Shown: positions 3,064 to 30,573 of the stretch, in pieces
Layout: each line of letters begins with the position of its first letter
Numbering within the stretch: position 1 is the first letter of the stretch
Assembly: GCA_900128395.1 (NCBI GenBank)
Contig: LT649323.1
Span: 1 to 37,649 of the forward strand
Length of the DNA: 37,649 nucleotides
DNA from: Stramenopiles sp. TOSAG23-2
Taxonomy: Eukaryota
Direction: 5' to 3'
Translations under genes and position numbers: made by a program
Notes under the pieces: model-generated
Seen by the model: only the letters and a program-made list of their open reading frames with translations
What the model was told of the DNA's origin: nothing
Database searches by the model: none

Positions 3064-3253
3064 CGCGTATATTTGAACTTTTACTTCCAATTCCTAGTTG
3101 TTGTCAAAAAATGTTCCGGTGTACCAAGATCAAATCTTTCCCCTTTCATAACTAATCCCGCGTATATTTGAACTTTTACTTCCAATTCCTAGTTGTTGTC
3201 AAAAAATGTTCCGGTGTACCAAGATCAAATCTTTCCCCTTTCATAACTAATCC
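3064..3253. repeat. Perfect 95-bp tandem duplication covering the stop codon of the kinase fusion gene
   Basis: 3064-3158 equals 3159-3253 (cgcgtatatttgaac...cataactaatcc). Confidence 0.95.
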
Positions 3254-5236
3254 TTTTGCACCAACTTCATTCATTACACTTCGTAAAACATCTGTAAAAC
3301 CAAATTGGCCATTGTTGCCACGTAAATTATTATCATGTTGTTTTTGTAAATGGTCAAAAATAATCGATGGTATTACATAATAACCAAAGACAGTTAAAAA
3401 GGAATTATCATCATATCCAGGTACTTTCAAATGTGCAGTTGCTTCCTCCACTGTAGGCTTTTCTTTTAATGTGCTAATTTTCAATGTTTCATTTCCACCA
3501 GATAGCCATGTACCAGTAGCAGCACCAAAGTGTGAAATCACATCTCCAGGTGATTTCTGTAAACCAATCAATGCACTACCATCGCTACAAATTTCCTTAT
3601 AACATTCTAATATTTGCTGAACGCATGGATGTTTGTTGTCATGTTTGGTTTTATATAAATGATCGCCTAATACTAATAAAAATGTATCTTTCCCAATAGC
3701 ATCTTTTGCACAAAGAACAGCATTGCCAAATCCTTCTTGTTTCAGCTGTACAACAAGTTCGATTTTTTCACCTAAACGCAATATATTTTTTGCCATTAAT
3801 TTTTGTTGCTGGTTTAAACGTGCATAATTTTGTGCAGGTAAAGGTTTTTTGAAAAAACCTTCATATGCAGGCAAATCATTAGGTTGTACGACTATGATGA
3901 CTTTTTCAATACCACCATCAATTAACTCTTGAACCACTATTAAAATTGCTGGTTTAGCAATACCATCTTCATCAACGATTGGAAATAAAGGCGGGCAAAT
4001 CGATTTTGTTGCTGGAAATAAACCAAGTCCAAATCCAGCAGCTGGTATCAATGCTTTTTTAATATTCGATGAGGCTTCAATAACTAATTTCATGACTTCA
4101 ACGGATAAATCTTGTTCTAAAATTTGCTTTACTTCCTCTTGTGCCTCTTCACTTTTACATATAAATTGTGCCGTTCCATCGCCACCAGCACCAACACCTT
4201 TCCCACCATATACTAAATTTTGGATTTTTGGATATTCTAAAATTTTATGCAATACAGGAGCGGTTAATTGTGATGGGCAAACACCTTGTCCAGCACGATC
4301 AAAATGTTCTTGCGCTTCATTCATTAATTTGCCTAGCACCTCCGCGTTGCCCTCGGAAAATGCTTTCGATGCCCTAGAGGTAATATCCAAATTAATTGGA
4401 CCAAGTACATTTTGAACATCTTCTTGTTCTTTTGTTTGTGCTTTTGGATATGCACTTTGTAAATCGCGTAAAATAACAACCGTATCTTTCTTTGCTTTTA
4501 AATCAACAATACAATAATACAATGGTTTTGGTACACGTATTTCCGATACATCAAGAAATTCACCATCATAGATCATTGACACTGGCCTTGAACCAAATGC
4601 ACATGCTTGGTCCATTCGACCACACATAGATGGTGTTAATATTTCACCTTGATATGCATATTCCATCTCGCCACGTGTAGTCATTTTTAAATCATATACA
4701 CGATTGATTGCACGTGCAGTTAAAACACATACAGCAGCAGAACTGGATAACCCTTTTTTTAATGGTAAATCAGTTTTATAATTATTAATCACGATGCCGC
4801 TAATACGATAATCAGTTAATAATTTATATGCAACTCCAGCTGCATAGGACCAAAAATCACCTTTTTGTGCAGCTTCTAATAATTTTTTCTTTTCCATCGG
4901 TATTTCATGTGGTCCATATGTTTTTCCACTCTCATCCGTTGAACGTAAAATTAAACTACTTGGATGTTTCCAACATTCAGCATGTAAGCCTTGATTTGTA
5001 CCAACAACTAATGTACATCCTGGTTGAATTTCATCATTAAATCTACGAAATCCACCAGCCCAGTCGGAATGTTCACCAAAAAGACAAACTCGTCCAGGAA
5101 CAAATAAATAATGTGCTTCCGCATTTTTTGTACTATTATTATTACCACCACTATTACGTCCACCTATTGAAGTTTTTAATGCAACTGTATGTTCTTGCCT
5201 TGGTGATTTTGGTGGAGAAATGGTTAACGATGCCAT
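3176..5236 (-). CDS. GHMP-family sugar kinase (galactokinase/glucuronokinase-like) fused to a C-terminal GalU-like nucleotidyltransferase domain
   Basis: GHMP motifs PGRVCLFGEHSD, LPLKKGLSSSAA, CGRMDQ and GGKGVGAGGDG. The C-terminal domain has KKALIPAAGFG..FPATK, QEGFGNAVL, LVLGD, LKEKP and RFDLGTP. Confidence 0.88.
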   Translation of the reverse strand: MASLTISPPKSPRQEHTVALKTSIGGRNSGGNNNSTKNAEAHYLFVPGRVCLFGEHSDWAGGFRRFNDEIQPGCTLVVGTNQGLHAECWKHPSSLILRSTDESGKTYGPHEIPMEKKKLLEAAQKGDFWSYAAGVAYKLLTDYRISGIVINNYKTDLPLKKGLSSSAAVCVLTARAINRVYDLKMTTRGEMEYAYQGEILTPSMCGRMDQACAFGSRPVSMIYDGEFLDVSEIRVPKPLYYCIVDLKAKKDTVVILRDLQSAYPKAQTKEQEDVQNVLGPINLDITSRASKAFSEGNAEVLGKLMNEAQEHFDRAGQGVCPSQLTAPVLHKILEYPKIQNLVYGGKGVGAGGDGTAQFICKSEEAQEEVKQILEQDLSVEVMKLVIEASSNIKKALIPAAGFGLGLFPATKSICPPLFPIVDEDGIAKPAILIVVQELIDGGIEKVIIVVQPNDLPAYEGFFKKPLPAQNYARLNQQQKLMAKNILRLGEKIELVVQLKQEGFGNAVLCAKDAIGKDTFLLVLGDHLYKTKHDNKHPCVQQILECYKEICSDGSALIGLQKSPGDVISHFGAATGTWLSGGNETLKISTLKEKPTVEEATAHLKVPGYDDNSFLTVFGYYVIPSIIFDHLQKQHDNNLRGNNGQFGFTDVLRSVMNEVGAKGLVMKGERFDLGTPEHFLTTTRNWK

Positions 5237-5420
5237 CTTTCAATTTTTTATATTATTGTTCTTCCGTGTGTGTGTGTATGTATGTATGTATGTATATTGA
5301 AGTTTTTAATGCAACTGTATGTTCTTGCCTTGGTGATTTTGGTGGAGAAATGGTTAACGATGCCATCTTTCAATTTTTTGTATTGTTCTTCCGTGTGTGT
5401 GTGTGTGTATGTATGTATAT
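5165..5420. repeat. ~130-bp tandem duplication covering the start codon of the kinase fusion gene
   Basis: 5165-5294 versus 5295-~5420. The coding 72 nt are identical, while the non-coding GT/GTAT microsatellite part differs. This creates a second ATG at 5366 and a 37-aa uORF (5253-5366, minus strand). Confidence 0.93.
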
Positions 5421-10856: not shown

Positions 10857-13583
10857 ATGACAGACACGGCAAAACAAGCACAAAATTCAAAGGCGTCGAC
10901 AAAAAATAAAGGTAATAAACCAAAAAAGTTAAAAGGTGATGACTTAGTAAAAGCTGTACAAAAGCAAATTGAGTTTTATTTGTCAAGAGACAACTTGCAA
11001 AATGATGCATATTTGGTACAACAAATGGATGCATCTTTGTATGTACCAGTGAAAGTACTTGCTAACTTTCCAAAAATTGTATCGTTAACGAAAGAAATGA
11101 ATATCATTTTAAAAGCTATTAAAACCAGTAAAGTAGTTCAGATAAATGGTGACGATACGTTGGTCAAGCCTGATATTACTATGGAACGAAATACTATCAT
11201 TTTACGTGACGTATCTTCCGATGTGAAAAAAGAAGATATCATCGCATTATTCAAAGAGCATAACGCAAAAGCGCTTAATGTACGAAGTGACATCAATGAC
11301 GTTTGGTTTGTACAAATGGAAAGTGAAGATGCTGCTCGTGAGGTATTGTTAAAAATGATGTCCTCCGGTAAAAAGTTAAAAGGTAAACCAATACGTGGTG
11401 GTTTGAAAACGGAAAGTTTATTACGCTCTGTGACACCTAAAGGTGGTGCATCTCCAAAAAATGCGTTGTCAGATGGTAACTCCAACAATCCATCCAACAT
11501 GACTGGGCGCAATCCAGGAACGGGTGGAAGCAATATGTATTCGCAACCACCACCACAAAACATGGGAATGCCACAAATGTACCCACCAATGCAAAATGGT
11601 ATGCCACCAATGTATGGATACATGAATGGAATGCCTCAAATGCCACCAGCACCGTACATGAACAATGGTATGGGGTATCAACCGTACATGAATGCACCTC
11701 ATATGTACAGCCCGCGTTTCATACCAGGCCAAGGTCAAGGGCAGCAATCGAATCAAAAAGGCGGTAAAGGGAATCGTACGGCACGAGGTAACAATAACCA
11801 AAGTGGCTATCAGCAAGGTGGTTATCAACAAGCAAATGGTTATACTCGCAATTCAAATCGCAACAATCAAATGCATGCAGGTGGACGTGGTCCACGTGCG
11901 AACCAACATCGTTACAACAACAATCGCAATAATTATAACAATAATTACCATCAACAAAATAATGCTGTTGCTCATAATATGAATAATGCAAACCATCAAA
12001 ATAACCAACATAATAATAGTAACCATCAATCATCGAACAATAATTCACAACATCATAACAATAAAAATCATAAAGTAGACAACAACAACAACAATAGCAA
12101 AAACAATAAGAATAGCAACAATTCCAATAATGCAAGTGCAGAGGTGAATAATAATAGTAATAACAGCAATAACAACTCTGGTAACAGCAGTGGGAAAAGC
12201 CGCAAAAATAAGAAGAAAGGTTCCAAATCTGATACAAATGCTGATAATAATAACAATAGTGGAAACAATTCAAAATCATCAAAAGATAAAGATCAAAAAA
12301 GTTCGAAAGGTGAAAAATCGAAGAAGAGGCGTAATTCGAAAAATGACAAACAGAAAGATAGCAATGCAAATATTAATGTCAACAGTGCATCTGATTTCCC
12401 ATCACTTGGTGGTTCATCAAAACCAGTCAGCACAAAATGGGGCAAAGGCGATGCGAGTGCCATTAAACGTGCACCAGAGCAAGAAGCCAGCGATGCAAAG
12501 AAAGAAGCATTTGCACGTTTAAAAACCAATGTCAATGAGGGAAATGCAAAAAAAGTAGTAACAAACGTCATTGATAATGCTGTTGCACAATCAAATAATA
12601 AAAAAACAAGTGGAAACAACAACAGCAGTGGCAAAAATAATAAATCTAGCGGTAAAAATAAAGATAACAATAATAGTAACAAGAATCAACAAAGTAATAG
12701 CAGTGCTTCGGCTGCGAATAATGTTGAAAGCAAACAGCCAGTTGGCGATAATAAACAATTTTCATGGGCGGCTACCGTTGCAAAGACAGCGAATGTACCT
12801 GTAAAGCCTGTTGCAAGCAAATCCGCTGGTAAAAATAGTGATGGAGGTGATGGTAAGAAAAAGAAAAAGAATGATAAAAATGGAAGTGGTAAAAAGGGGG
12901 ATAAATCAGGATCCAAATCATTGAATAACAATGCAAAACAAGGAAACGCGTCAAAATCTCCTGGATCCAGTCCAAATCGCAATAATCAAACGGGTAATTC
13001 AGATAACAGCAATAATGGTAATAATAATACAGCACCCAATGATAGTTCAAATAAAGCGACTGCTACGAAAACCAGCGCGCCGGCACCTAGACGTGGATGG
13101 GAGCGCCCAGAATTAACAAAAGAAAGGGAGAAACTTTTAAAAGAAAAAGCCCAACGCGAGTCGGTCGATGTTGCCCAAACAGATGGTCAACAAAAAGACG
13201 GTGGCAAAAAAAGTAAAAAGAAAAGTGGAGACAGTGATAAAGGAAACAATAAAAAATCCAATAATAATAAAAACGAAGATAGTAAAGCTAATACAACATC
13301 ATCAGATAGTAAAGGTTCAAATATGAACACGGGAAATGTAGATGATGATCAAAGAGAACGTAGTAATAGTAACAATGGCAAACCAACGTTTGCTGAAATG
13401 CTTCGTAAAAAGCAACAAGCGCAACAAAATAAAGACAAGGCGAATTCTCCAGGGGAAAGAGGTATAAATCAAAATGTTAAAAATTCGAGAGCGCTTGCAT
13501 TTGCCGATGCAACTGGAGCTCAAAGTAGTTTTAATAATGCTGAAAAGCCAGAAAGAGAATTTGTTAGAAGTGATCTTCAATAA
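10857..13583 (+). CDS. La-related RNA-binding protein, LARP4-like (La motif + RRM + long low-complexity tail)
   Basis: La motif QIEFYLSRDNLQNDAYLVQQMD...VPVKVLANFPKI, followed by an RRM (TIILRDV...VRSDINDVWFV). Short conserved-looking DFPSLG, FSWA and TFAEML motifs sit in an N/K/S-rich tail. Confidence 0.88.
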   Translation: MTDTAKQAQNSKASTKNKGNKPKKLKGDDLVKAVQKQIEFYLSRDNLQNDAYLVQQMDASLYVPVKVLANFPKIVSLTKEMNIILKAIKTSKVVQINGDDTLVKPDITMERNTIILRDVSSDVKKEDIIALFKEHNAKALNVRSDINDVWFVQMESEDAAREVLLKMMSSGKKLKGKPIRGGLKTESLLRSVTPKGGASPKNALSDGNSNNPSNMTGRNPGTGGSNMYSQPPPQNMGMPQMYPPMQNGMPPMYGYMNGMPQMPPAPYMNNGMGYQPYMNAPHMYSPRFIPGQGQGQQSNQKGGKGNRTARGNNNQSGYQQGGYQQANGYTRNSNRNNQMHAGGRGPRANQHRYNNNRNNYNNNYHQQNNAVAHNMNNANHQNNQHNNSNHQSSNNNSQHHNNKNHKVDNNNNNSKNNKNSNNSNNASAEVNNNSNNSNNNSGNSSGKSRKNKKKGSKSDTNADNNNNSGNNSKSSKDKDQKSSKGEKSKKRRNSKNDKQKDSNANINVNSASDFPSLGGSSKPVSTKWGKGDASAIKRAPEQEASDAKKEAFARLKTNVNEGNAKKVVTNVIDNAVAQSNNKKTSGNNNSSGKNNKSSGKNKDNNNSNKNQQSNSSASAANNVESKQPVGDNKQFSWAATVAKTANVPVKPVASKSAGKNSDGGDGKKKKKNDKNGSGKKGDKSGSKSLNNNAKQGNASKSPGSSPNRNNQTGNSDNSNNGNNNTAPNDSSNKATATKTSAPAPRRGWERPELTKEREKLLKEKAQRESVDVAQTDGQQKDGGKKSKKKSGDSDKGNNKKSNNNKNEDSKANTTSSDSKGSNMNTGNVDDDQRERSNSNNGKPTFAEMLRKKQQAQQNKDKANSPGERGINQNVKNSRALAFADATGAQSSFNNAEKPEREFVRSDLQ

Positions 13584-15370: not shown

Positions 15371-15898
15371 TCAATCGACATTCAACGATTTTCGTTTGAC
15401 ATCACGAAGTATAAAATTCGTATCTTTCCCCTCTTCTAGACGTTCTTTGCATTCCAATAATTTTCCAACAATACCGACGGTGAAACTTGTACTATACATG
15501 CCATCGAATTCTTTTAACATTTTGGTTGGAATGGTTACTTCGTTTGGTATACCATCTTCGGCTAACTTATTGATATTATTTAATGCTACGTCAAAATTAA
15601 TTATTGCATCAGTCAATTCATTAGTTAAAGTATCATGTGCATTAACATTTTGACTTGAGCTACTTGAACTAGATCTTTCCAGCTCTTTCTCTTTTTTTTC
15701 GATTGAAACATCTTGAATATTTGTATAAAACGTTTGTTTAAAGGTATCTAAAAGTGAAATGGATTTCATAATATTTTCTTGCAAATTTTTAATAGCAGTA
15801 GTGGACCCACCTGTTTCTAATTTATTTACATTATTATTATTATTATTTGTTCTTTTATTTGATCCACCATCTGCATCTTCTCTTTTTCTTTTCTTCAT
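15371..15898 (-). CDS. Small nuclear protein, possibly a divergent Mediator subunit Med10
   Basis: N-terminal MKKRKR NLS. LTDAIINFDVALNNINKLAE...EVTIPTKMLKEFDG resembles the Med10 pattern L..l..i...L..idk....i.vP.ev...iD.G. By-eye similarity only. Confidence 0.45.
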   Translation of the reverse strand: MKKRKREDADGGSNKRTNNNNNNVNKLETGGSTTAIKNLQENIMKSISLLDTFKQTFYTNIQDVSIEKKEKELERSSSSSSSQNVNAHDTLTNELTDAIINFDVALNNINKLAEDGIPNEVTIPTKMLKEFDGMYSTSFTVGIVGKLLECKERLEEGKDTNFILRDVKRKSLNVD

Positions 15899-16150
15899 TG
15901 TTATTTTTTTATGTTTCTGTTAGAGGGGTTATATGTGTAGATAGATGAATGTGTTTAGATATATTTGCATGTCTTTACATTTATATATTTGAATGATGAA
16001 GACTTGTGTATTATCTATATAGTTTATAGTTGTTTTTAAGTTATAGTTTTTGTTCAACAAAACAACACAGTCGTCTATATTATCGTCTACTTGGTAGTTA
16101 TGTGAAAATTTGCTAGTGTTATACTACCTATCATAATATATAAGTATGAT

Positions 16151-16174
16151 ACAGTGCATCTCACTTTGGAATCA
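16151..16174 (+). repeat. Left terminal inverted repeat
   Basis: ACAGTGCATCTCACTTTGGAATCA; 14 of the first 15 nt match the right TIR. Confidence 0.85.
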
Positions 16175-16346
16175 ATATTTTATTAAGGTAGAAATGGAAC
16201 CATTTGGAACACAGTATTATAATCACAGAATGAAATGGAATCATAAAGTACCTTAAATATTAAAAAAGTAAAAATTTAGACAATTATTTTTTCCTTGGTT
16301 CCTCTTGTTCCAGTTGATTCCGTTTTACTCCAATGCATTCCTGTTT

Positions 16347-18640
16347 CTATGCAAATTCGCCCATTCCTTTGAAAAATGGAACAAAATGCAAATATCCGAC
16401 ATTATTTGAAGGAATTTTTAAAAGTTTCAATCGACGCGATACACAAACATAGTTATTTTCCCATGTTCTAATGAAAATACAAGGGATAATTCCATCAACA
16501 TTTTTCATTCCTGGATTGGGAGGATTTGTTGCTGTTGGCGAATTAATAACTGGAAAATCTGGTCCCAAATTGAAGCTGTATTCTCTATTGTGTATTCTAA
16601 CAGGTACAATTTGCTTGAAACCATCATTGTCAAATTTTGCATAGAACTTCTGCTCTTCACAATGGAAAAATGCGGAAAGAAAACTGTCATCATCATTGTT
16701 TTTACAATATTGTTTACCGCCACCATAATGCAATCGTTTTTGTTTATCTTCTGCACTTTCATCATCAATATCATAGCTACTATCTAGCATATGTAGCGCT
16801 TGCATCATATGAAACTTGTCTGTAACATGCTTTGGCCAATCTTTTGATCCTGTATTGGCAGATTTTGCCCATACTTTTACCCTTCGTATAAAACCCTCAA
16901 AAACACGATCGTTTCCTTCAATGTATCGATAATCAAAAGCAGCTGCTATTAAATTTAACATGTTTGGACGTGCCATGACAAAGAACTTATAAAACTGTTT
17001 CCAACTACCATCTCGTTCCTTTAATAATACTTCAGTAATTTTTTGGCCTCCCCAATATCAAAGTTGTCCTGTCCCATTTTTTTTATTATTTCTTTATATC
17101 GTACAGAGCATATTGTATTACATGGTATTAATTCAGGATTATGCTTAATATTGGCACACCACCCTCTATATTTTGTTGTATTTGAACCCACCCCTGCCAC
17201 CCCAAAAAATTTATAAAAGGCCACACCGTCCATCATGCAAATTACTTCAATTAATTCATCTAAATTTGAAATTTGATGCAAAATATTTTTCAATGCAGAA
17301 TGAAAACCTTCATGATTTCTTGAATATCCTGTAGCTAACGAATAAAATTTTTGGTATGTATGGAATTCATGCATGGACTGTTCATCATCTCTATCAGGAT
17401 AGGGCACCAGGACCATTTGCATAATGCTATTCTTATCTTGCACATTTCCTTTTGCATAATCATCATACCAAAGCATTAAAACGATTTTATTATCCTTAAT
17501 ATCTTGTAATATTTTACATGTTATTTCATTTTCTTGTAGCTCCGTTTTTAAGGATGAACGTAAACGATTCCAAGTTGTCTTTGTTTGATTCCATTCGATT
17601 CTAGATTGTTCAGGCAATTCACTTGGCAATATTTTCCAAATGTCAATATCAATAAACGTTCCATTTGTTCCATTTGCTTCCATATTGGTCTGATGTGATT
17701 CCAAGATGGATTTTAACTTTTCCTCTGTTTCCTTAATCTGATCACGAATTGCTCTTAATGTTTCATTACTGTCAATAGCATTGTTTAAGGAACCGTTTAA
17801 TTCCAAATAATTTTTCATCTTCATCTTTATCTTAATATCACGTTTTGATAAATCCAATAACATTGAGTCTATGTTTAATACAGCTACACCATTCAACATA
17901 TTGCATTCTGGTATACCAATTTCATTTGGCAGTTTCAATACAATGATGCGATATATTTGTTCAGAAGTCAAAATCCCATGATATATATGGGATGTATTCA
18001 CTGTATGTTCTATGAAACTCTTTAATGTACTATGGCTTAGATGCTTTCTAAGAAAGGTAACAAACAAATAATGCAATGATAAAAACAAATCATGTTTGTG
18101 TGTGGCATTATAGTAGATGCTTGTGCCATTGATAGTTTTGGTTACAACATTATTAATTGCCTTATATAAACTTGGGTATATACGATGATACTTGCATTTG
18201 TTGTCATTTGTACATTTCCTGCATGGTGGTAAAGGTGGTGGACCATATATGGTTTGGGATGCAGTTGATATAACTGATGGAACGCCATTTTTATCACTAC
18301 TACTGCAATTATTATTATTATCATTGTTAGTGTTATCATCAAACATATTATCATTGTTAGTGTTATCATCAAACATATTGAAGTCATCATTATCGTTATT
18401 GGCACGGCGACGCTTATTATTTTGTTTTTTGTTTGCTTCATATCGATTGTGCTCACTTAATTTATAAATAGATATTTCATTTTTAAATGTTACTTTCAAT
18501 ATATTCTTGTTGCATTTAATGCATTTAATGAGTATTAGATCTGAATCATCTTGTTGATGTGCTGTATAATAATCATCCATCATTGTCAGATCTACATTAG
18601 GTGCAGACCCATCGTCTTTAAAAGCTTCACTGAGAAGCAT
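16347..18640 (-). pseudogene. Putative DDE transposase (CMC/Transib/RAG1-like) split by a single frameshift
   Basis: ORFs 17021-18640 and 16347-16976 join into ~764 aa if one A is added to the A6 run at 17039-17044 (...EAKK|ITEVLLKERDGSWKQFYKFFV|MARP...). Candidate catalytic residues are in LMLWYDD, CMMDG and ESAEDKQK. Candidate Zn ligands are in GWC and TDKFHMMQALH. The N-terminus has CxxC motifs (CIKC, CRKC...CKYH). Confidence 0.65.
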
Positions 18641-18666
18641 TTCTGTAAGTCGGTAAGTATATATCT

Positions 18667-18778
18667 ATATGGAACTATATATATTGTATATAAATATATG
18701 TGGAATGATGCGGAACAAACAATTATTCATATGGAACTATATATATTGTAATATAAATATATGTGGAATGATGCCGAA
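18667..18778. repeat. ~62-bp tandem duplication just upstream of the transposase start
   Basis: atatggaactatatatattgta(a)tataaatatatgtggaatgatgc(g/c)gaa at 18667 and 18729. Confidence 0.9.
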
Positions 18779-20785
18779 TAAAATATACTATTGTATAATA
18801 AATTCATACAATTTTTGATATAAATTAGGATTATATTCAACTTGACAAAACAATATTGAATGGAGCAGAGCAATGCGGAATCAAATGGCGATATATGGAA
18901 CTGATATATGTATGAATTTAAATTATATTAATTTGAATGTTTGTATATAGAGCTTGCAGAACTACTAAGAATATTATGGAATCGAACGGAACAGGATTGA
19001 AAAAATGTACAGAGTTATAAATCTATATTTTATATTATACAATAATTTTGTATTTATTGCTTCCGTATAATGCTATTTCATTCCATGTTGTTCCATGTTT
19101 AGAATTTTTCTTATCTTGTATGAATCTGTATCTATTTGATTCCATATGGTTCTATTTGTTTCATCGAGAAAATAAAAATTTTCACTAAGTTAAAAAAAAA
19201 AAGGGTCTTTTTATACTTTGTGTTTTTTTTTTTACTTTTAAAATCCATACAAATTACATTAAATAAAGACACTACAAATTATTGTATGGGAAAACTAATT
19301 TTCCCCCTAGATAGATAACAAAAGTTCTCATTGATGTTTTAAATTTCCAGAATGTTGTGCAACACAATAGACAACATCTTTTATCTTTTATACTTCGTAT
19401 ACAAATTAACACTAATAACAATGGGGAATTTAAATTAAATTGATTAAATGCACAATTACTTTTCCACCATCAATATTTTGAGTTTTATATTTTATATAGT
19501 ACTTTATCTCACAGTTAAAGTACAAAAACTCTCCTAAATGTCGATATAGTCATTCACAATGAGGTAATAACATAAGCACAGCATTACTTCCAAAAGACCA
19601 TTTTTTGTGTTCTGAAAAATCACGTTATTTGATTCCATGTGCTTCCAAATTTTTTCTAACCACTCAATGGCAAAATAGCATAGAATTAGCACTAGGTGCA
19701 GTCTGACTGTATCCAAAATCACGTTATTTGATTCCATTTGGTTCTACTTTTCTCCATGTTTTGACACTAACACTACAAACAAAGTACTTAATGACCCCTA
19801 TATTAATAAATTTAAATTTTCACGTTGAAGAAAAATTTTACCAATTTTTTGGAAATACACCCACTAATTACATACTATAAATACATATAAATAAAAAACA
19901 TATATATACATCAAAGATATAAATACACATAACTTTTGATCTAGAGCTCCCTAGAACTTCTAGATGTATAGATAGATTGATACTTACATTAGAAAATATA
20001 TATATATATATATATATAGATAGAATAGATAGATAGAATTAAATAGAAAAAATTAAAATTAAATAGAAAAAAGTAAGTATTCTCATTTTCTAAAATTAAA
20101 AATATTTTTTAAATATATTTTAGTTCCATTTGATTCTAATATGTTCTGTTATAACAATTCCAGATGGTTCCATTTAGTTCTAAAAATATCCAATTAATAT
20201 TTTATAAATTTATTGTTTAAGAATGAAATGGAACCATATAGAACCTTTCAAATAGAATCGACAGGAATCAAATGGAACAACACAAAAAGTTTTTGTTAAA
20301 ATTAAAATGAAAATGTTTTATTTTTTTTTTTATTTTTTTTTTATTTTATTTTTTTTTTTTTGGAATGAAATGGAAGAAAATGGAGACGTACTTTTTTCAA
20401 AAGATGAAAAATTAATAATATTAAGGTAAATTTTGAAACATCAATGTCATAGGTACATGTCGAATATTTAAGTACATCTTTAAAGTATATATCGAAAGAA
20501 GAAGTAAAGTTGTAAAAATTGCTTAAATTTTTCATGGAAAGGAAGTTGATAGGAAATTTTTGGTCGTATTGTTGAAATTATTCCGCGTAGCTTTATTCCT
20601 GTTGGTTCTGTCGGGTTCCATGAGTTGTTTTTAGTTTAAGGCTTGCATGGCAAGGAATACAAGTACTGGGCCTGGAATATATTGCGGTAACTACACAGCA
20701 TTACACAGGGAATATAGTATTTTTGGATTTTAACTAACTAAGAAACTATTCCAGTTGATTCATTGTGGTTCTGTATGATTCCAGA

Positions 20786-20809
20786 TAATTCAAGAGTGAG
20801 ATGTACTGT
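20786..20809 (-). repeat. Right terminal inverted repeat
   Basis: TAATTCAAGAGTGAGATGTACTGT on the + strand. Confidence 0.85.
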
Positions 20810-21002
20810 AGTATGATGGAAATAAAAATTACACGCTACACTCTCTCCTATTTTTTTACGTAGTACGAAGAACTATGTCACATATACTACACGTATATAT
20901 ATATATATATATATTCTTTGTACAAAGTACCATATTTTATCACATTATATATACATTAATTACATGTTCGTCTCTCTCTTCATATGTCTTAAAAATTGTC
21001 TC

Positions 21003-22760
21003 TCATATCTTAAAAATTGATTTATTGTTTTTATGATAAAAGTCTCCATACTTCAAAATATATTCAGGTATGTATTTCTCATATCGTTTCCATCTTCCTA
21101 TGAATTTACTAGTTAAACCTTGTTTTACTTGTAATGAGCTTACTGTATGGGTAAACTTTTTATTTAAGTAAAACTTTAACATGGATTCTTCAAATTCAAT
21201 TGTTTCATCATCATTATCATTTTGTTGTATATTTTGATGTACAAATAGCTTATCTAATGTCCGCCTTGGATCCTCTATTAGTTTCTCGTATGAAATATCA
21301 AGCATATGAATTCCAAGACGCTTCCAAGTAGACATTGTTTCAACGTATTGCTTGTAATATTCCTCAATATAATTTGATTTTAATGACCACACCATACCAT
21401 TACTGCGAAAATCATTTAAGAAAATACTTATAAATACATCACGAGGATCTCTCATTATATGAATAATCGTTGATTTTGGAAACATAGCAGTAATAAATGG
21501 GATGTAGCGAATGTTTTGTGGTGTTTTATCAGTTAAATATGATATCTTTATATCCTCGCAAATATTACCATCCTCTTTTAATGATGTCGCTTTGATGTAA
21601 TCTTGAAGTTTAACATTAAAATCATCATGCAATTTCGCCAAATGTGGTTTATCAACGAATGATGGTGTATAATTATTTTTCTTTGTCACTGCTATGGTTG
21701 GTGCTACTTCACTTATTAATCCACTTTCACCTAAACATTTTATTTTTGAATGTGAGCACAATATTTTTTCCAGTAAACTTGTACCAGAACGTGGCATTCC
21801 AATAATGAAAATCATTTTCTTATCTAAACATGGAGTATTGCTTTGATTGATTCCTGGAACTGGATTAAAATTGGTATAGTTGAATATATGTTTATTATTG
21901 TATATCACACGTACAGCTGATAAATAAAAAAAGATTTCCTTTAAAATAGATGGCGGGACAATTCCATCTTCATCCTCTAAATTAGAAATTTTACGTAAAG
22001 CATGTTTTGAATTTCCATTTCGTTTTTCTTTTTCGATAATTTGTAATAATTTCATTCTGTTTGCTTTGTCACTGAGATTAAATGCTATTTTTTCATTATC
22101 AATACGCATTGTAGCTTTGTCGTAATATTCTGCTAGATTATATAACACAAATGGTGATAGTTTAGTCGTAATGTTTTTTTTGGCATTTTGTTGTAATTCC
22201 ATTGAATCTTCTAATAATATTGAATTCATTTTATCATTACAAATTTCAATCTTTTGTTTATCATAAAACTTGGAGCAATATTCAGTCCAAATATCTTCGT
22301 ATGAAGGAATTGTGAATAATGTATAATTGTTTATATTATTTTCCATATATATATCTTGATTTTGTTCTATTTCTATTAATATTTTTAGTGCATCTTCATG
22401 CTTTCCTTGTTGATTCAAAATCCAAACATATGCAAATAGATATTTTTCTCGATTTATATTTATTGCTTTTAATATAAATTTTTCTGCTAATGAAGGATTT
22501 TTTTTTGAATAATTAAATGATATCACAGCTAATATATACAATGGATCGCTCATGAATGGACATACATTAATACAATTTTTCAAATCTATTTCAATTGATA
22601 ATATTGTATCTGGAGATGCATTCGGTGATTCTATGAATTTCAAACGCACATCATCAATCGTTTGTTTAACCAATATTTGACATTCATGATAAATATTCGC
22701 ATTTGTCAATAATAGTACATTACAAAGTAATAATATCATAATGATGGTCCGTATTATCAT
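21003..22760 (-). CDS. Secreted or membrane-anchored PAPS-dependent sulfotransferase with an N-terminal TPR-like region (Sulfotransfer_3-like)
   Basis: 5'-PSB loop IFIIGMPRSGTSLLEKIL, DKTPQN, 3'-PB IIHIMRDPRDVFIS, ISYEKLIEDP and TVSSLQVKQ...IGRWKRY. The first ATG is at 22760 (the track used a GTG at 22787) and is followed by a hydrophobic signal. Confidence 0.9.
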   Translation of the reverse strand: MIIRTIIMILLLCNVLLLTNANIYHECQILVKQTIDDVRLKFIESPNASPDTILSIEIDLKNCINVCPFMSDPLYILAVISFNYSKKNPSLAEKFILKAININREKYLFAYVWILNQQGKHEDALKILIEIEQNQDIYMENNINNYTLFTIPSYEDIWTEYCSKFYDKQKIEICNDKMNSILLEDSMELQQNAKKNITTKLSPFVLYNLAEYYDKATMRIDNEKIAFNLSDKANRMKLLQIIEKEKRNGNSKHALRKISNLEDEDGIVPPSILKEIFFYLSAVRVIYNNKHIFNYTNFNPVPGINQSNTPCLDKKMIFIIGMPRSGTSLLEKILCSHSKIKCLGESGLISEVAPTIAVTKKNNYTPSFVDKPHLAKLHDDFNVKLQDYIKATSLKEDGNICEDIKISYLTDKTPQNIRYIPFITAMFPKSTIIHIMRDPRDVFISIFLNDFRSNGMVWSLKSNYIEEYYKQYVETMSTWKRLGIHMLDISYEKLIEDPRRTLDKLFVHQNIQQNDNDDETIEFEESMLKFYLNKKFTHTVSSLQVKQGLTSKFIGRWKRYEKYIPEYILKYGDFYHKNNKSIFKI

Positions 22761-23489
22761 TTTTAGATACAGTATATATATATCCACACTAACACAGTCG
22801 CTGTGTATTATATTATCTACTATGATGAGGGGAAATTGAATAATAGCATTGCTTCTTTAATGTCCGTGTCGATTTACAATTGTATTTGTTTTCCACCTGT
22901 TAATTTCGTCATATATATTATATGAATTACATACAGTATTTTTTTTCTATATTTTTATAGATTATTAATTTGTTGTTTTGTTACAATAACTACATGACAC
23001 ATTATTATGAAAACCACTGCCAAGTTATTTGAAATACTAAAAATATCCGATTTTTTGGTGATATCCAATACCTCTCTATCAAATATACATAAATTAGTAT
23101 ACTAAATTAGTACTTAAATTAAACCCGGTTTTGAAATCCACTAATAATCCTTCTCATTTACAAGGTTACATTATAACATTATAAGGCTTTATAATATTCT
23201 CAAAAAATGTGTTTATACTTTTCTAGAAAGAATTACAGTACCTGTGTACCTGCTGTGTGTGAGGCAATAATTTTTTTTCTTCAATATCGAAATCGTCATT
23301 ATAGGTGCTTATTAGGCCCTATAACCAGCTAAACTGCTGCTGCTAAATATAAAAACTCCTTTATTATTATTTCTATTATTATAATTTATATAGATGTGAT
23401 GTACAAATGTGTACAAATATACATATCCAAATGGAAATAGAAAAGAACAAAACAATAAAACAATATATTTTCCCATTAAACTGTATATA

Positions 23490-29049: not shown

Positions 29050-29283
29050 TTAACTTAAACTATACTATACTGTAAGACACAAAAACATATACCTGAATCC
29101 CGAATATCCAAAAATATCCTTTGCCATAAATTCATTTATAGCTATATGCAACATATTCATATATCAGAAATAATATATATCAATACCTTTCACATCCTGT
29201 CGAAGAAATCAACAACAGATTCATCACAACAACAAAAATAACATATATATATACATATACATACATAATTATATTAACTCATC

Positions 29284-30573
29284 ATGCCAATCTCTACAAA
29301 ATTAACAAAAGCATTAGGAATAAAAGCACCAATTATACAAGGTGGTATGCATTATGTTGGGTACGCCCCATTAGTAGCAGCGGTTGGTGAAGCTGGTGGT
29401 ATTGGTTGTGTAACAGCATTGACACAACCTAGTGCAGAAGCATTACAAAATGAAATACGTCTTGTGAAAAAAATGTCAACAAAACCATTTGGTGTAAATT
29501 TAACATTATTGCCAGCACTAGCACCACCAAATTATAATGAATTTGCTGATGTTGTCGAAGATGAAATGAAGTCTGGACAGTTACGTATGATTGAAACTGC
29601 GGGGCATTTTAAAGGGTTAGAACCATTTGTAAAGCAATTCAAAGATGCTGGTGCATTTGTAATACATAAATGTGTTGCTATACGACATGCAAAAAGTGCT
29701 GAACGATTAGGTGTAGATATGATATCAATGGATGGATTTGATTGTGCTGGACATCCTGGTGAAATGGATATTGGTAATTGGGTGTTATTTGCCAAGGCAG
29801 CACGTGAATTATCAATACCATTTGTAGCATCTGGTGGTTGTGCTGATGGGAAACAATTAGCAGCAGCAATAGCATTAGGTGCTGAAGGTATGAATATGGG
29901 TACACGCTTCATGGCAACAGTCGAAGCACCAATACATGATAATGTGAAACAAGCATTAGTTGATGCAGATGAATTATCAACTACACTTATCATGCGATCA
30001 ATGAGAAATACGGAACGTGTCTTTAACAATAAAGCTGCACAAGAAGTCTTGGAAATTGAAAAAGAAAATCCTGGGGAATTTGATAAAATTCATCATTTAG
30101 TACGTGGTGACAATTATAGAAAAGTGTTTCAAGAAACTGGAAATTTAGACGAAGGTGTTTGGAGTGCTGGTACTGTAATGGGTTTAATTGATAATGTAGT
30201 AACATGTGAAGAATTGATTAACAATATCGTTGATGAAGCGGAAACCATTATTAAAAATCGATTAAATGATAGTGTTATAATTGATAAAGATGGTCCAATT
30301 GTCGCTACACCACGATGGTTATTGGAATATAATTATGTGGAAGATGTTGAAACTGCACGTGAACCACATCGTATGAATCATATATCACTTGTACGTGATA
30401 TGAAAGCAGATGGAAAAATTATTATGGGTGGTGCACACAAGGATATGAAAGGTGCACATATAATATTTAACGATGAAACAAGTTTAGATGAATTTGTGAA
30501 ACAAGATCCATATGTATTAGAAGGTGTTGTTACATCCTTTGAGAAAAAAGAATGGACCGTAGTGGTAGATTAA
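29284..30573 (+). CDS. FMN TIM-barrel oxidoreductase of the nitronate monooxygenase family (PA1024-type NADH:quinone reductase) fused to a C-terminal YciI domain
   Basis: PIIQGGM, ALTQPS, PFGVNLTLLP, IETAG, IHKC, DGFDCAGHPG, ASGG.ADG and MGTRF motifs. From aa ~345 it reads WLLEY...REPHRMNH...GGA...DPYV..GVV...EW, the YciI pattern. Confidence 0.9.
   Translation: MPISTKLTKALGIKAPIIQGGMHYVGYAPLVAAVGEAGGIGCVTALTQPSAEALQNEIRLVKKMSTKPFGVNLTLLPALAPPNYNEFADVVEDEMKSGQLRMIETAGHFKGLEPFVKQFKDAGAFVIHKCVAIRHAKSAERLGVDMISMDGFDCAGHPGEMDIGNWVLFAKAARELSIPFVASGGCADGKQLAAAIALGAEGMNMGTRFMATVEAPIHDNVKQALVDADELSTTLIMRSMRNTERVFNNKAAQEVLEIEKENPGEFDKIHHLVRGDNYRKVFQETGNLDEGVWSAGTVMGLIDNVVTCEELINNIVDEAETIIKNRLNDSVIIDKDGPIVATPRWLLEYNYVEDVETAREPHRMNHISLVRDMKADGKIIMGGAHKDMKGAHIIFNDETSLDEFVKQDPYVLEGVVTSFEKKEWTVVVD

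Follow-up and report, generated by a model that had tools for sequence, protein, structure and literature searches.

The question raised by this locus is what kind of mobile DNA occupies positions 16152 to 20808 of a 37,649-nt stretch of Stramenopiles sp. TOSAG23-2 (assembly GCA_900128395.1, contig LT649323.1, positions 1-37,649 of the forward strand; the whole stretch is called the window below). A first-pass annotation made from the letters alone had recognised here a transposon with both ends intact, whose termini, target duplication and transposase seemed to fit no standard superfamily together. We read the 4,657 nt between these positions as a non-autonomous, internally deleted copy of a cut-and-paste DNA transposon of about 5.6 kb, belonging to a rare family whose enzyme would most likely be a very distant relative of the CMCT transposases (CACTA/EnSpm-Mirage-Chapaev-Transib-Plavaka). 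Taken as a whole, this reading is in our judgement somewhat better than evenly balanced, and the CMCT affinity of the enzyme, considered alone, is about an even call. With the boundaries placed at CAGTG…CACTG and the internal deletion recognised, the apparent clash of ends, duplication and enzyme largely dissolves.

The ends of the element are inverted relative to each other: the left end (16151-16174) reads ACAGTGCATCTCACTTTGGAATCA and the right end (20786-20809) reads, as its reverse complement, ACAGTACATCTCACTCTTGAATTA, with 20 of the 24 positions compared identical. Within the window, a 15-nt end pattern occurs without mismatch solely at these two places. When up to two mismatches are allowed, a third match appears inside an open reading frame (ORF) at 12382, giving three matches against 0.16 expected, and none of 100 shuffles reached three or more. 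Just two copies of the 8-mer AGTATGAT are present in the window, at 16143-16150 and at 20810-20817. Two or more copies per window are not unusual (69 of 100 shuffles); the unusual part is their placement beside the ends. Among 2,000,000 random pairs of flanks taken from the rest of the window, the chance of a common 8-mer at equal distance from both junctions is 5.5e-4, and at any offset from 0 to 4 it is 1.65e-3. The inverted ends and the flanking 8-mer bear out the presence of a transposon with both ends intact, and each of the three boundaries that had been offered, with duplications of 8, 6 or 2 bp, is literally possible in this copy.

The element carries two minus-strand ORFs, 17021-18664 and 16347-17057, which overlap near 17021-17057 and had been joined, across a presumed frameshift, into a 764-aa protein. 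What separates them became clear from a scan of Joint Genome Institute (JGI) metagenome contigs with the family alignment, which yielded three loci (L001, L002 and L003) among 241 million records. L001 (8,322 nt) is 99% identical to the window copy in the query region and keeps the gene, which is intron-less, as a single open frame, which from its ATG encodes a 1,087-aa protein, P0009. BLASTN aligns the two copies in two blocks: window 17029-19462 with L001 3205-776 (94.4% identity), and window 16149-17028 with L001 5058-4179 (99.9%). The 973 nt between them in L001 (3206-4178) have no counterpart in the window, where the break falls exactly between 17028 and 17029; read base by base, this junction is clean, with one base of microhomology. 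The supposed frameshift is thus a 973-nt internal deletion, and the 764-aa protein is a shortened form of the 1,087-aa transposase.

The 5' part of the transposase gene (17029-18640, minus strand, ATG at 18638-18640), with its two small Cys/His motifs, encodes residues 1-536 of P0009 (497 of 537 aligned columns identical), and the 3' part (16350-17027, minus strand, stop codon at 16347-16349) encodes residues 862-1087 (226 of 226 identical). Some 325 residues, about 537-861, are gone, and the deletion has shifted the frame. The motifs WYDD (17459-17470, minus strand) and MMDG (17225-17236, minus strand) are retained in the 5' part; the deleted segment took with it the Cys cluster and the MH, AIFQxDE and FDH motifs, that is, most of the invariant ones. 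Because of this loss the window copy is, judging by its sequence, a non-autonomous, internally deleted derivative. In three fragments of relatives (P0003, P0004 and P0006) the conserved Cys motif stands right at the point where the window ORF breaks, and one metagenome contig (X5) runs from 17029 on into L001-type sequence. In X5, 26 letters separate 16961 from 17029 at a joint that is most plausibly a copy of full-length type entering the 973-nt segment, after which comes a short spurious match (a side of 30); it is not a real variant.

The window copy and L001 have diverged unevenly. Over 536 codons, the ratio of non-synonymous to synonymous substitution rates (dN/dS) is 0.43, and the amino-acid differences between window 17029-18640 and L001 1597-3205 fall almost all within residues 21-366, while the remaining gene and the 3' arm are 99.9% identical. 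The copies are therefore mosaics of lineages that diverged under some constraint, and exchange between subfamilies, by recombination or conversion, is suggested. A perfect 30-nt tandem duplication (18316-18375) lies in the transposase linker rich in Asn and Asp; a spike in word depth over it (18227-18482, 557-762 in three of the four runs and 12 in X4) is a low-complexity artefact and does not reflect copy number.

Both arms are packed with short oriented repeats. TGGAAY occurs six times in the 300 nt of the left subterminal region (16152-16451, plus strand), or 20 per kb, and in the long non-coding 5' arm (18665-20808, minus strand) at 11 per kb in 18665-19462 and 14 per kb in 20109-20808, whereas the 33 kb of flanking sequence have 1.4 per kb. 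Its orientation is mostly opposite on the two arms, and we presume these repeats to be putative binding sites for the transposase. The L002 and L003 subfamilies have TGGCAT in their place. A 74-nt imperfect palindrome (20123-20278; 70% complementary, 8-nt loop) is made of the subterminal repeats of the 5' arm. The outer 1.35 kb of this arm (19463-20808) has no counterpart in L001, whose positions 1-775 are unrelated to the window arm and lack another inverted repeat; this means either that L001 has been truncated or is a chimera in that part, or that 5' arms of more than one kind exist in the family.

That the locus is a host gene lying between chance inverted and direct repeats, and no mobile element at all, is close to refuted. 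It would agree with the fact that Pfam recognises no transposase family in the protein. Against it, L001 carries the same end and gene beside different DNA, about 1 kb from a DEAD-box helicase gene, a placement that we count as evidence of apparent mobility. A complete sister element, 4,160 nt long and 42% identical in amino acids, lies at 8252-12411 of L003; its own inverted repeats are 23 nt long (22 of 23 identical) and have the same 5-nt tips as those in the window, CAGTG…CACTG, and it retains only a 632-codon ORF, so that it looks degraded too. The oriented repeats of the arms and the end-pattern count reached in 0 of 100 shuffles speak in the same direction, as do several copies altered by deletion or rearrangement (the window copy, P0011 and perhaps the one behind a joint in a contig of X3). 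In P0011 (581 aa) the first 23 residues come from the plus strand of the window 5' arm (19352-19422) and the rest from the minus-strand gene from the Cys motif on; on sequence grounds it derives from the element by inversion or rearrangement. The X3 contig joins 16420 to 20102, skipping 3,681 nt, and might suggest a miniature non-autonomous derivative, but the shorter side of the joint has just 22 letters, too little to support such a claim.

The position of the boundary bears directly on the length of the target duplication. We used contig pieces from four marine metagenomes, 32 of which are listed (530 more exist). Among the 32 listed, at least three stop exactly at 16152 or 20808 and then continue into unlike sequence. 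One of them (X4 record 11) matches with a single other letter in 542 nt (99.8% identity) up to 16152, with 38 unlike letters beyond; the other two stop at 20808, with 19 (X3 record 7) and 114 (X4 record 13) unlike letters beyond. Because a common terminal A or T would have joined the match, the bases 16151 (A) and 20809 (T), which pair with each other in the window, are flank in at least one other copy. The other copies among the listed pieces lack the A or T beside their ends, and the element sequence common to them runs from 16152 to 20808, CAGTG…CACTG. The left terminal inverted repeat accordingly begins with CAGTG at 16152 (16152-16174, plus strand) and the right one ends with TACTG at 20808 (20786-20808, minus strand).

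The flanks of the complete sister element agree with this boundary: …GCATCA precedes CAGTG and CAACGT… follows CACTG, so that CA alone is common to the two sides and no 8-bp repeat is found in any register. Both complete elements thus have matching 2-bp flanks, TA in the window (16150-16151 and 20809-20810) and CA in L003, at a chance of 0.08 per element. In the window, the two octamers directly beside CAGTG…CACTG are unlike (GTATGATA and TAGTATGA), and the repeated 8-mer is set off from these tips by one base. Because of the boundaries of the other copies and the CA/CA flanks of L003, we favour a 2-bp duplication, TA in the window; in our rough weighing it is the probable case, an 8-bp duplication has a minor chance, and a duplication of some other kind is improbable. 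The 8-mer beside the ends stands as an observation, and its status as the target duplication is no longer favoured; with a 2-bp duplication it would be a coincidence or a short tandem repeat that already existed at the target.

The 8-mer would instead be explained if the true ends were ACAGTG…CACTGT and the family belonged with hAT, Zisupton/KDZ or another group that makes 8-bp duplications, which we regard as unlikely. The repeat perfectly abuts these ends in the window (chance 5e-4 to 1.7e-3), L001 reads …CACTGT before its flank, and the left end of L003 reads A-CAGTG. This view is at odds with the right end of L003, CACTG-C, with its lack of an 8-bp repeat, and with the pieces that stop at 16152, not 16151, and at 20808, not 20809; it would require that L003 be a chimera or a recombinant and that the outermost base at each end vary among nearly identical copies. 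The single end of L001, CACTG followed by TATGTACCC, fits either length. The empty site predicted by an 8-bp duplication is …ATATAAGTATGATGGAAAT… and by a 2-bp duplication …AAGTATGATAGTATGATGG…, and a site retaining …GTATGATAGTATGATG… would be contrary to the former. Neither of the 2 joints listed from the four metagenome runs is that of an empty site, and none of the listed pieces spans a junction, though contigs say nothing on absence.

Four sequences spanning the core of the enzyme were aligned (L001, L002, L003/P0010 and P0012; numbering as in P0009). Invariant in all four are D470 (in MMDG), C506, C539-x-C541, D543, H642 (in MH), Q699, D701/E702 (in AIFQxDE) and D775/H776 (in FDH), and WYDD (D392/D393) is identical in the three that reach that region. 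WYDD and MMDG, the first two acidic motifs of the first-pass annotation, are conserved in every relative covering them; they lie 77-78 residues apart and, in low-confidence models, at predicted strand ends in the order expected of the first two acidic residues in a transposase of RNase-H type. The remaining motifs of that proposal fared less well. Its C..C pair (PCNTIC) is not conserved, relatives reading PCNSRH, TCNSKH and PCNARR. The H-x5-H near the C terminus (KHVTDKFH) is present in two of the three sequences reaching the region, and two further relatives with this region lack its second His. For the third acidic residue, placed earlier in an ExxExxxK motif, the invariant AIFQxDE with D701/E702, inside the deleted segment, is the better candidate. 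Between the second Asp and the candidate Glu lie 232 residues, predicted to be mainly helical. C537 is present in two of the four sequences and no C-x-x-C is conserved; H642-x5-H648 is found in three (L002 has G). The N-terminal region contains Cys/His motifs of the forms CxxC…H and CxxC…C..H.

For the enzyme, the one pointer to a superfamily comes from a protein language-model atlas. With the window ORF as query, Transposase_21 occupies ranks 1 and 3 (0.88-0.89), Plavaka rank 5 (0.88) and RAG1 fragments rank 30 (0.83); with the intact core, the three nearest clusters are unnamed (0.89-0.90) and are followed by Transposase_21, Plavaka and DUF1258 (0.87-0.89). By the rating of the tool scores below 0.9 are leads, and a third of shuffled proteins obtain a top ten all of one clan. 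Both low-confidence structural models show a strand (ending in WYDD), two more strands, a helix, a strand (ending in MMDG) and then helices, one of which starts at D701/E702, an order that hints at an RNase-H-type catalytic core.

Several observations weigh against a distant CMCT relative with a 2-bp duplication. At the boundary, the 8-bp repeat, offset by a single base from the tips CAGTG and CACTG, goes unexplained by the 2-bp model, L001 retains the additional T that adjoins CACTG, and the L003 contig could be chimeric across copies, which makes its flanks weak evidence. The third base of the ends is G, as in hAT, and not the C of Transib ends and recombination signal sequences (RSS). In the enzyme, the family has C-x-C(-x-C) where CMCT proteins have C(2)C, and no H(3-4)H is conserved, the family having H-x5-H in three of four. 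Scanning Pfam-A at E≤10 with three whole proteins and eight pieces returned no relevant family, the only matches being low-complexity or chance ones below the cut-off. Searches of the PDB by phmmer and with two family profiles returned no transposase chain; chance matches to ABCB1 (through a GxGKS-like stretch), to mL48 and to a hypothetical protein were set aside. The structure prediction and Foldseek search that had been proposed were run on the intact protein, using its 718-aa core and the first 371 residues of that core. AlphaFold2 with a 7-row alignment gave a mean predicted local distance difference test (pLDDT) of 35.5 and 42.3, respectively, too poor to use, and Foldseek found no match to the 371-residue model at E≤0.001, so that the RNase H fold and its acidic triad are putative. 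A Foldseek match to Hermes (E about 1.2, template-modelling (TM) score 0.13-0.17) is meaningless on so poor a model. Every named-family score in the language-model atlas is below 0.9, which makes the pointer to a superfamily a lead only. Nothing in sequence, profile or fold thus ties the enzyme to RAG1 or Transib; of the earlier placement with EnSpm, Chapaev, Transib and RAG1 and away from Tc1/mariner, the part that stands is this lead, through the neighbours Transposase_21, Plavaka and RAG1.

Relatives of the enzyme are few. Among 1,835,955,588 representative proteins, five were found at E≤0.001, all of the same family. The family profile found four among 5.8 billion clusters, one of which, P0012, comes from a eukaryote proteome collection (37-42% identity). 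A word-indexed protein search with the 540-aa ORF had no match, Asn/Asp low-complexity words having probably swamped the query; limited to residues 370-540 it returned P0003 only, a broken version of the L002 gene. No significant alignment was obtained between P0002 and the C terminus of P0003. In IMG/VR there was no relative by protein pattern and no match to the end sequence of either family, and the 185,579 prokaryote species genomes of GTDB likewise gave no end-sequence match and no relative by protein pattern. Parts of a 7.7-kb stretch holding the element and its flanks are present in 20 sequencing runs from 11 studies, mostly marine or seawater metagenomes, two small runs of which may be the source itself. 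A literature search by named superfamily, not by sequence (Zisupton, Kyakuja, Plavaka, Lanisha, Transib, Chapaev, Mirage, EnSpm and RAG1), found no description of the family. Taken globally, the family is a rare and apparently undescribed one of an AT-rich marine microbial eukaryote.

This rarity could also mean that the family forms a lineage of its own at the rank of a superfamily, not specifically related to CMCT, to hAT or to another named group, and that what it has in common with them (ends of the form CA..TG, the two Asp motifs and a Cys cluster) is generic. The exclusively same-family matches of the protein and profile searches, the absence of any Pfam family or PDB chain, CMCT signature motifs that are not present as defined, and the empty results in prokaryotes and IMG/VR would all suit such a lineage. 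The named language-model neighbours argue otherwise, since two queries consistently gave Transposase_21, Plavaka, DUF1258 and RAG1, and so do the ends and the probable 2-bp duplication, which lie within the CMCT range as given in the part of PMC12730594 used here; moreover, a lack of matches is weak evidence when it rests on searches at the Pfam and PDB level and on poor models. We judge such a separate origin unlikely.

For a distant CMCT relative, which remains our preferred reading, the following mechanism can be proposed. The intact 1,087-aa transposase would consist of a presumed DNA-binding region at the N terminus, a catalytic region and a C-terminal region. Its N-terminal Cys/His region would recognise the TGGAAY repeats in both arms, and the swap to TGGCAT in L002 and L003 would be expected if binding sites and binding domain co-evolve. 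The transposase would then pair the CAGTG…CACTG ends, its core would cut at the CAGTG tips, presumably by the chemistry of an acidic (DDE) triad, and the excised element would be reinserted with a short stagger, most likely duplicating 2 bp, TA in this case. Having lost its Cys cluster and also what is likely the third catalytic residue, the window copy should be movable only with enzyme supplied by a full-length copy such as L001.

The family matters in several respects. Marine protists are poorly sampled for mobile DNA, and this family has escaped every curated profile tried. The intact enzyme of L001 and the naturally deleted element of the window form a ready pair of autonomous and non-autonomous partners for activity tests. 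Should the enzyme prove to group with EnSpm, Plavaka, Transib and RAG1, more diversity would be known in the group behind the V(D)J recombinase, and the family would show how ends and duplication length vary there; if not, it would represent a new superfamily. Somewhat more speculatively, and with only a modest chance of being right, it may be an undescribed superfamily-level lineage confined to marine protists, with a WYDD/MMDG/C-x-C/MH/FQxDE/FDH signature, hAT-like CAG tips combined with a CMCT-like enzyme and a 2-bp duplication, which could sit near the root of the Transib/RAG1 group. In genome annotation, the two ORFs of the window copy should not be entered as genes; the proper treatment is to mask the copy as a defective transposon.

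The element lies in an AT-rich (about 25-40% G+C), intron-poor eukaryotic region, between a 182-codon ORF (15371-15919, minus strand) and a sulfotransferase gene (21003-22856, minus strand). No Rfam families or tRNAs were found in the window. Elsewhere in it, a 687-codon ORF (3176-5239, minus strand) combines galactokinase/GHMP-kinase signatures at the N terminus with a C-terminal nucleotidyl-transferase domain and is possibly a fused sugar-1-kinase/pyrophosphorylase. The ORF at 29278-30573 (plus strand) joins a nitronate monooxygenase domain to a C-terminal YCII-related domain.

How does the family compare with known systems? Tc1/mariner elements have a strict TA target, a DD34-41E/D spacing and a protein of about 340-360 aa; they are excluded by the CA flanks of L003, by the spacing of 77-78 residues between the Asp motifs and by the 1,087-aa protein.

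The consensus of hAT ends is YARNG, which CAGTG fits, and, like this family, the Ac/Ds elements of the hAT group have short repeats near their ends and include non-autonomous copies with internal deletions. In hAT transposases a C/DxxH motif reportedly follows the second Asp; none was seen on reading our alignment. The hAT dimerisation domain was matched neither by the C-terminal 255 aa nor by the whole protein (Pfam, E≤10), and hAT is missing from the language-model neighbours. An 8-bp repeat is present in one copy, where it does not abut CAGTG…CACTG, and L003 has none. The third base of hAT ends is always G according to the portion of PMC1131882 consulted (Figure S7 legend), as it is here. 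The predicted mainly helical gap of 232 residues would also suit an insertion domain of hAT type. By its ends and the 8-bp repeat, hAT stays a serious competitor, though none of its domains was detected.

In KDZ proteins, to go by the names of the Pfam families, Cys-rich clusters accompany the transposase domain, a likeness to this family. No Pfam family of any kind was matched at E≤10 (KDZ models being included if the library has them), and no KDZ family is among the language-model neighbours. As for the DNA, Zisupton makes 8-bp duplications, comparable with the 8-bp repeat of the window, and Kyakuja has CA..TG ends with 7-bp duplications, as stated in the part of PMC12730594 drawn on here.

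With Transib and RAG1 the family shares two Asp and a late acidic residue with a long, mostly helical stretch between, besides the RAG1 fragments at rank 30 noted above. In passages of Kapitonov & Jurka (2005, PMC1131882), Transib elements have 5-bp duplications, a heptamer-spacer-nonamer layout of their ends, and a CAC at positions 1-3 that is invariant in Transib ends and RSS. No 5-bp duplication fits our element, the 5 nt beside either boundary being mismatched, and no nonamer-like block was seen in the family ends, though none was looked for. RAG1 domains were matched by sequence in neither Pfam nor the PDB. The likeness of the left end, TACAGTG, to the RAG heptamer borrows a TA that other copies show to be flank; the end itself, CAGTG, has G as its third base, in place of the C of CAC. 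A lineage related to RAG1 and Transib, as first suggested, is thus unsupported beyond the weak language-model lead.

The closest parallels are with CMCT as a whole. According to the part of Kojima 2025 (PMC12730594) on which we rely, CMCT lineages mostly have 5'-CA..TG-3' ends, duplications of 2-5 bp and, in the stretch from the second Asp to the Glu, the motifs C(2)C and H(3-4)H; PlavakaA duplicates 2 bp, PlavakaB 2-3 bp and ESTA TA. CA…TG ends are found in the window (with TACTG on the right arm) and in L003, both complete elements have matching 2-bp flanks (the window with its 8-bp repeat one base out as well), two Asp motifs precede a Cys cluster and His residues ahead of a late acidic residue, and the language-model neighbours are Transposase_21, Plavaka, DUF1258 and RAG1 (0.83-0.90). 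On the other side, the ends begin CAG… and not CAC…, the protein is long, the 8-bp repeat of the window is unexplained, and no similarity to EnSpm, Plavaka, Transib or RAG1 domains is detected at the level of hidden Markov models (Pfam-A, E≤10). Because its Cys/His motifs differ in form and it lacks profile similarity, we do not file the family as a CMCT member; it probably works like one, and it may be a distant relative.

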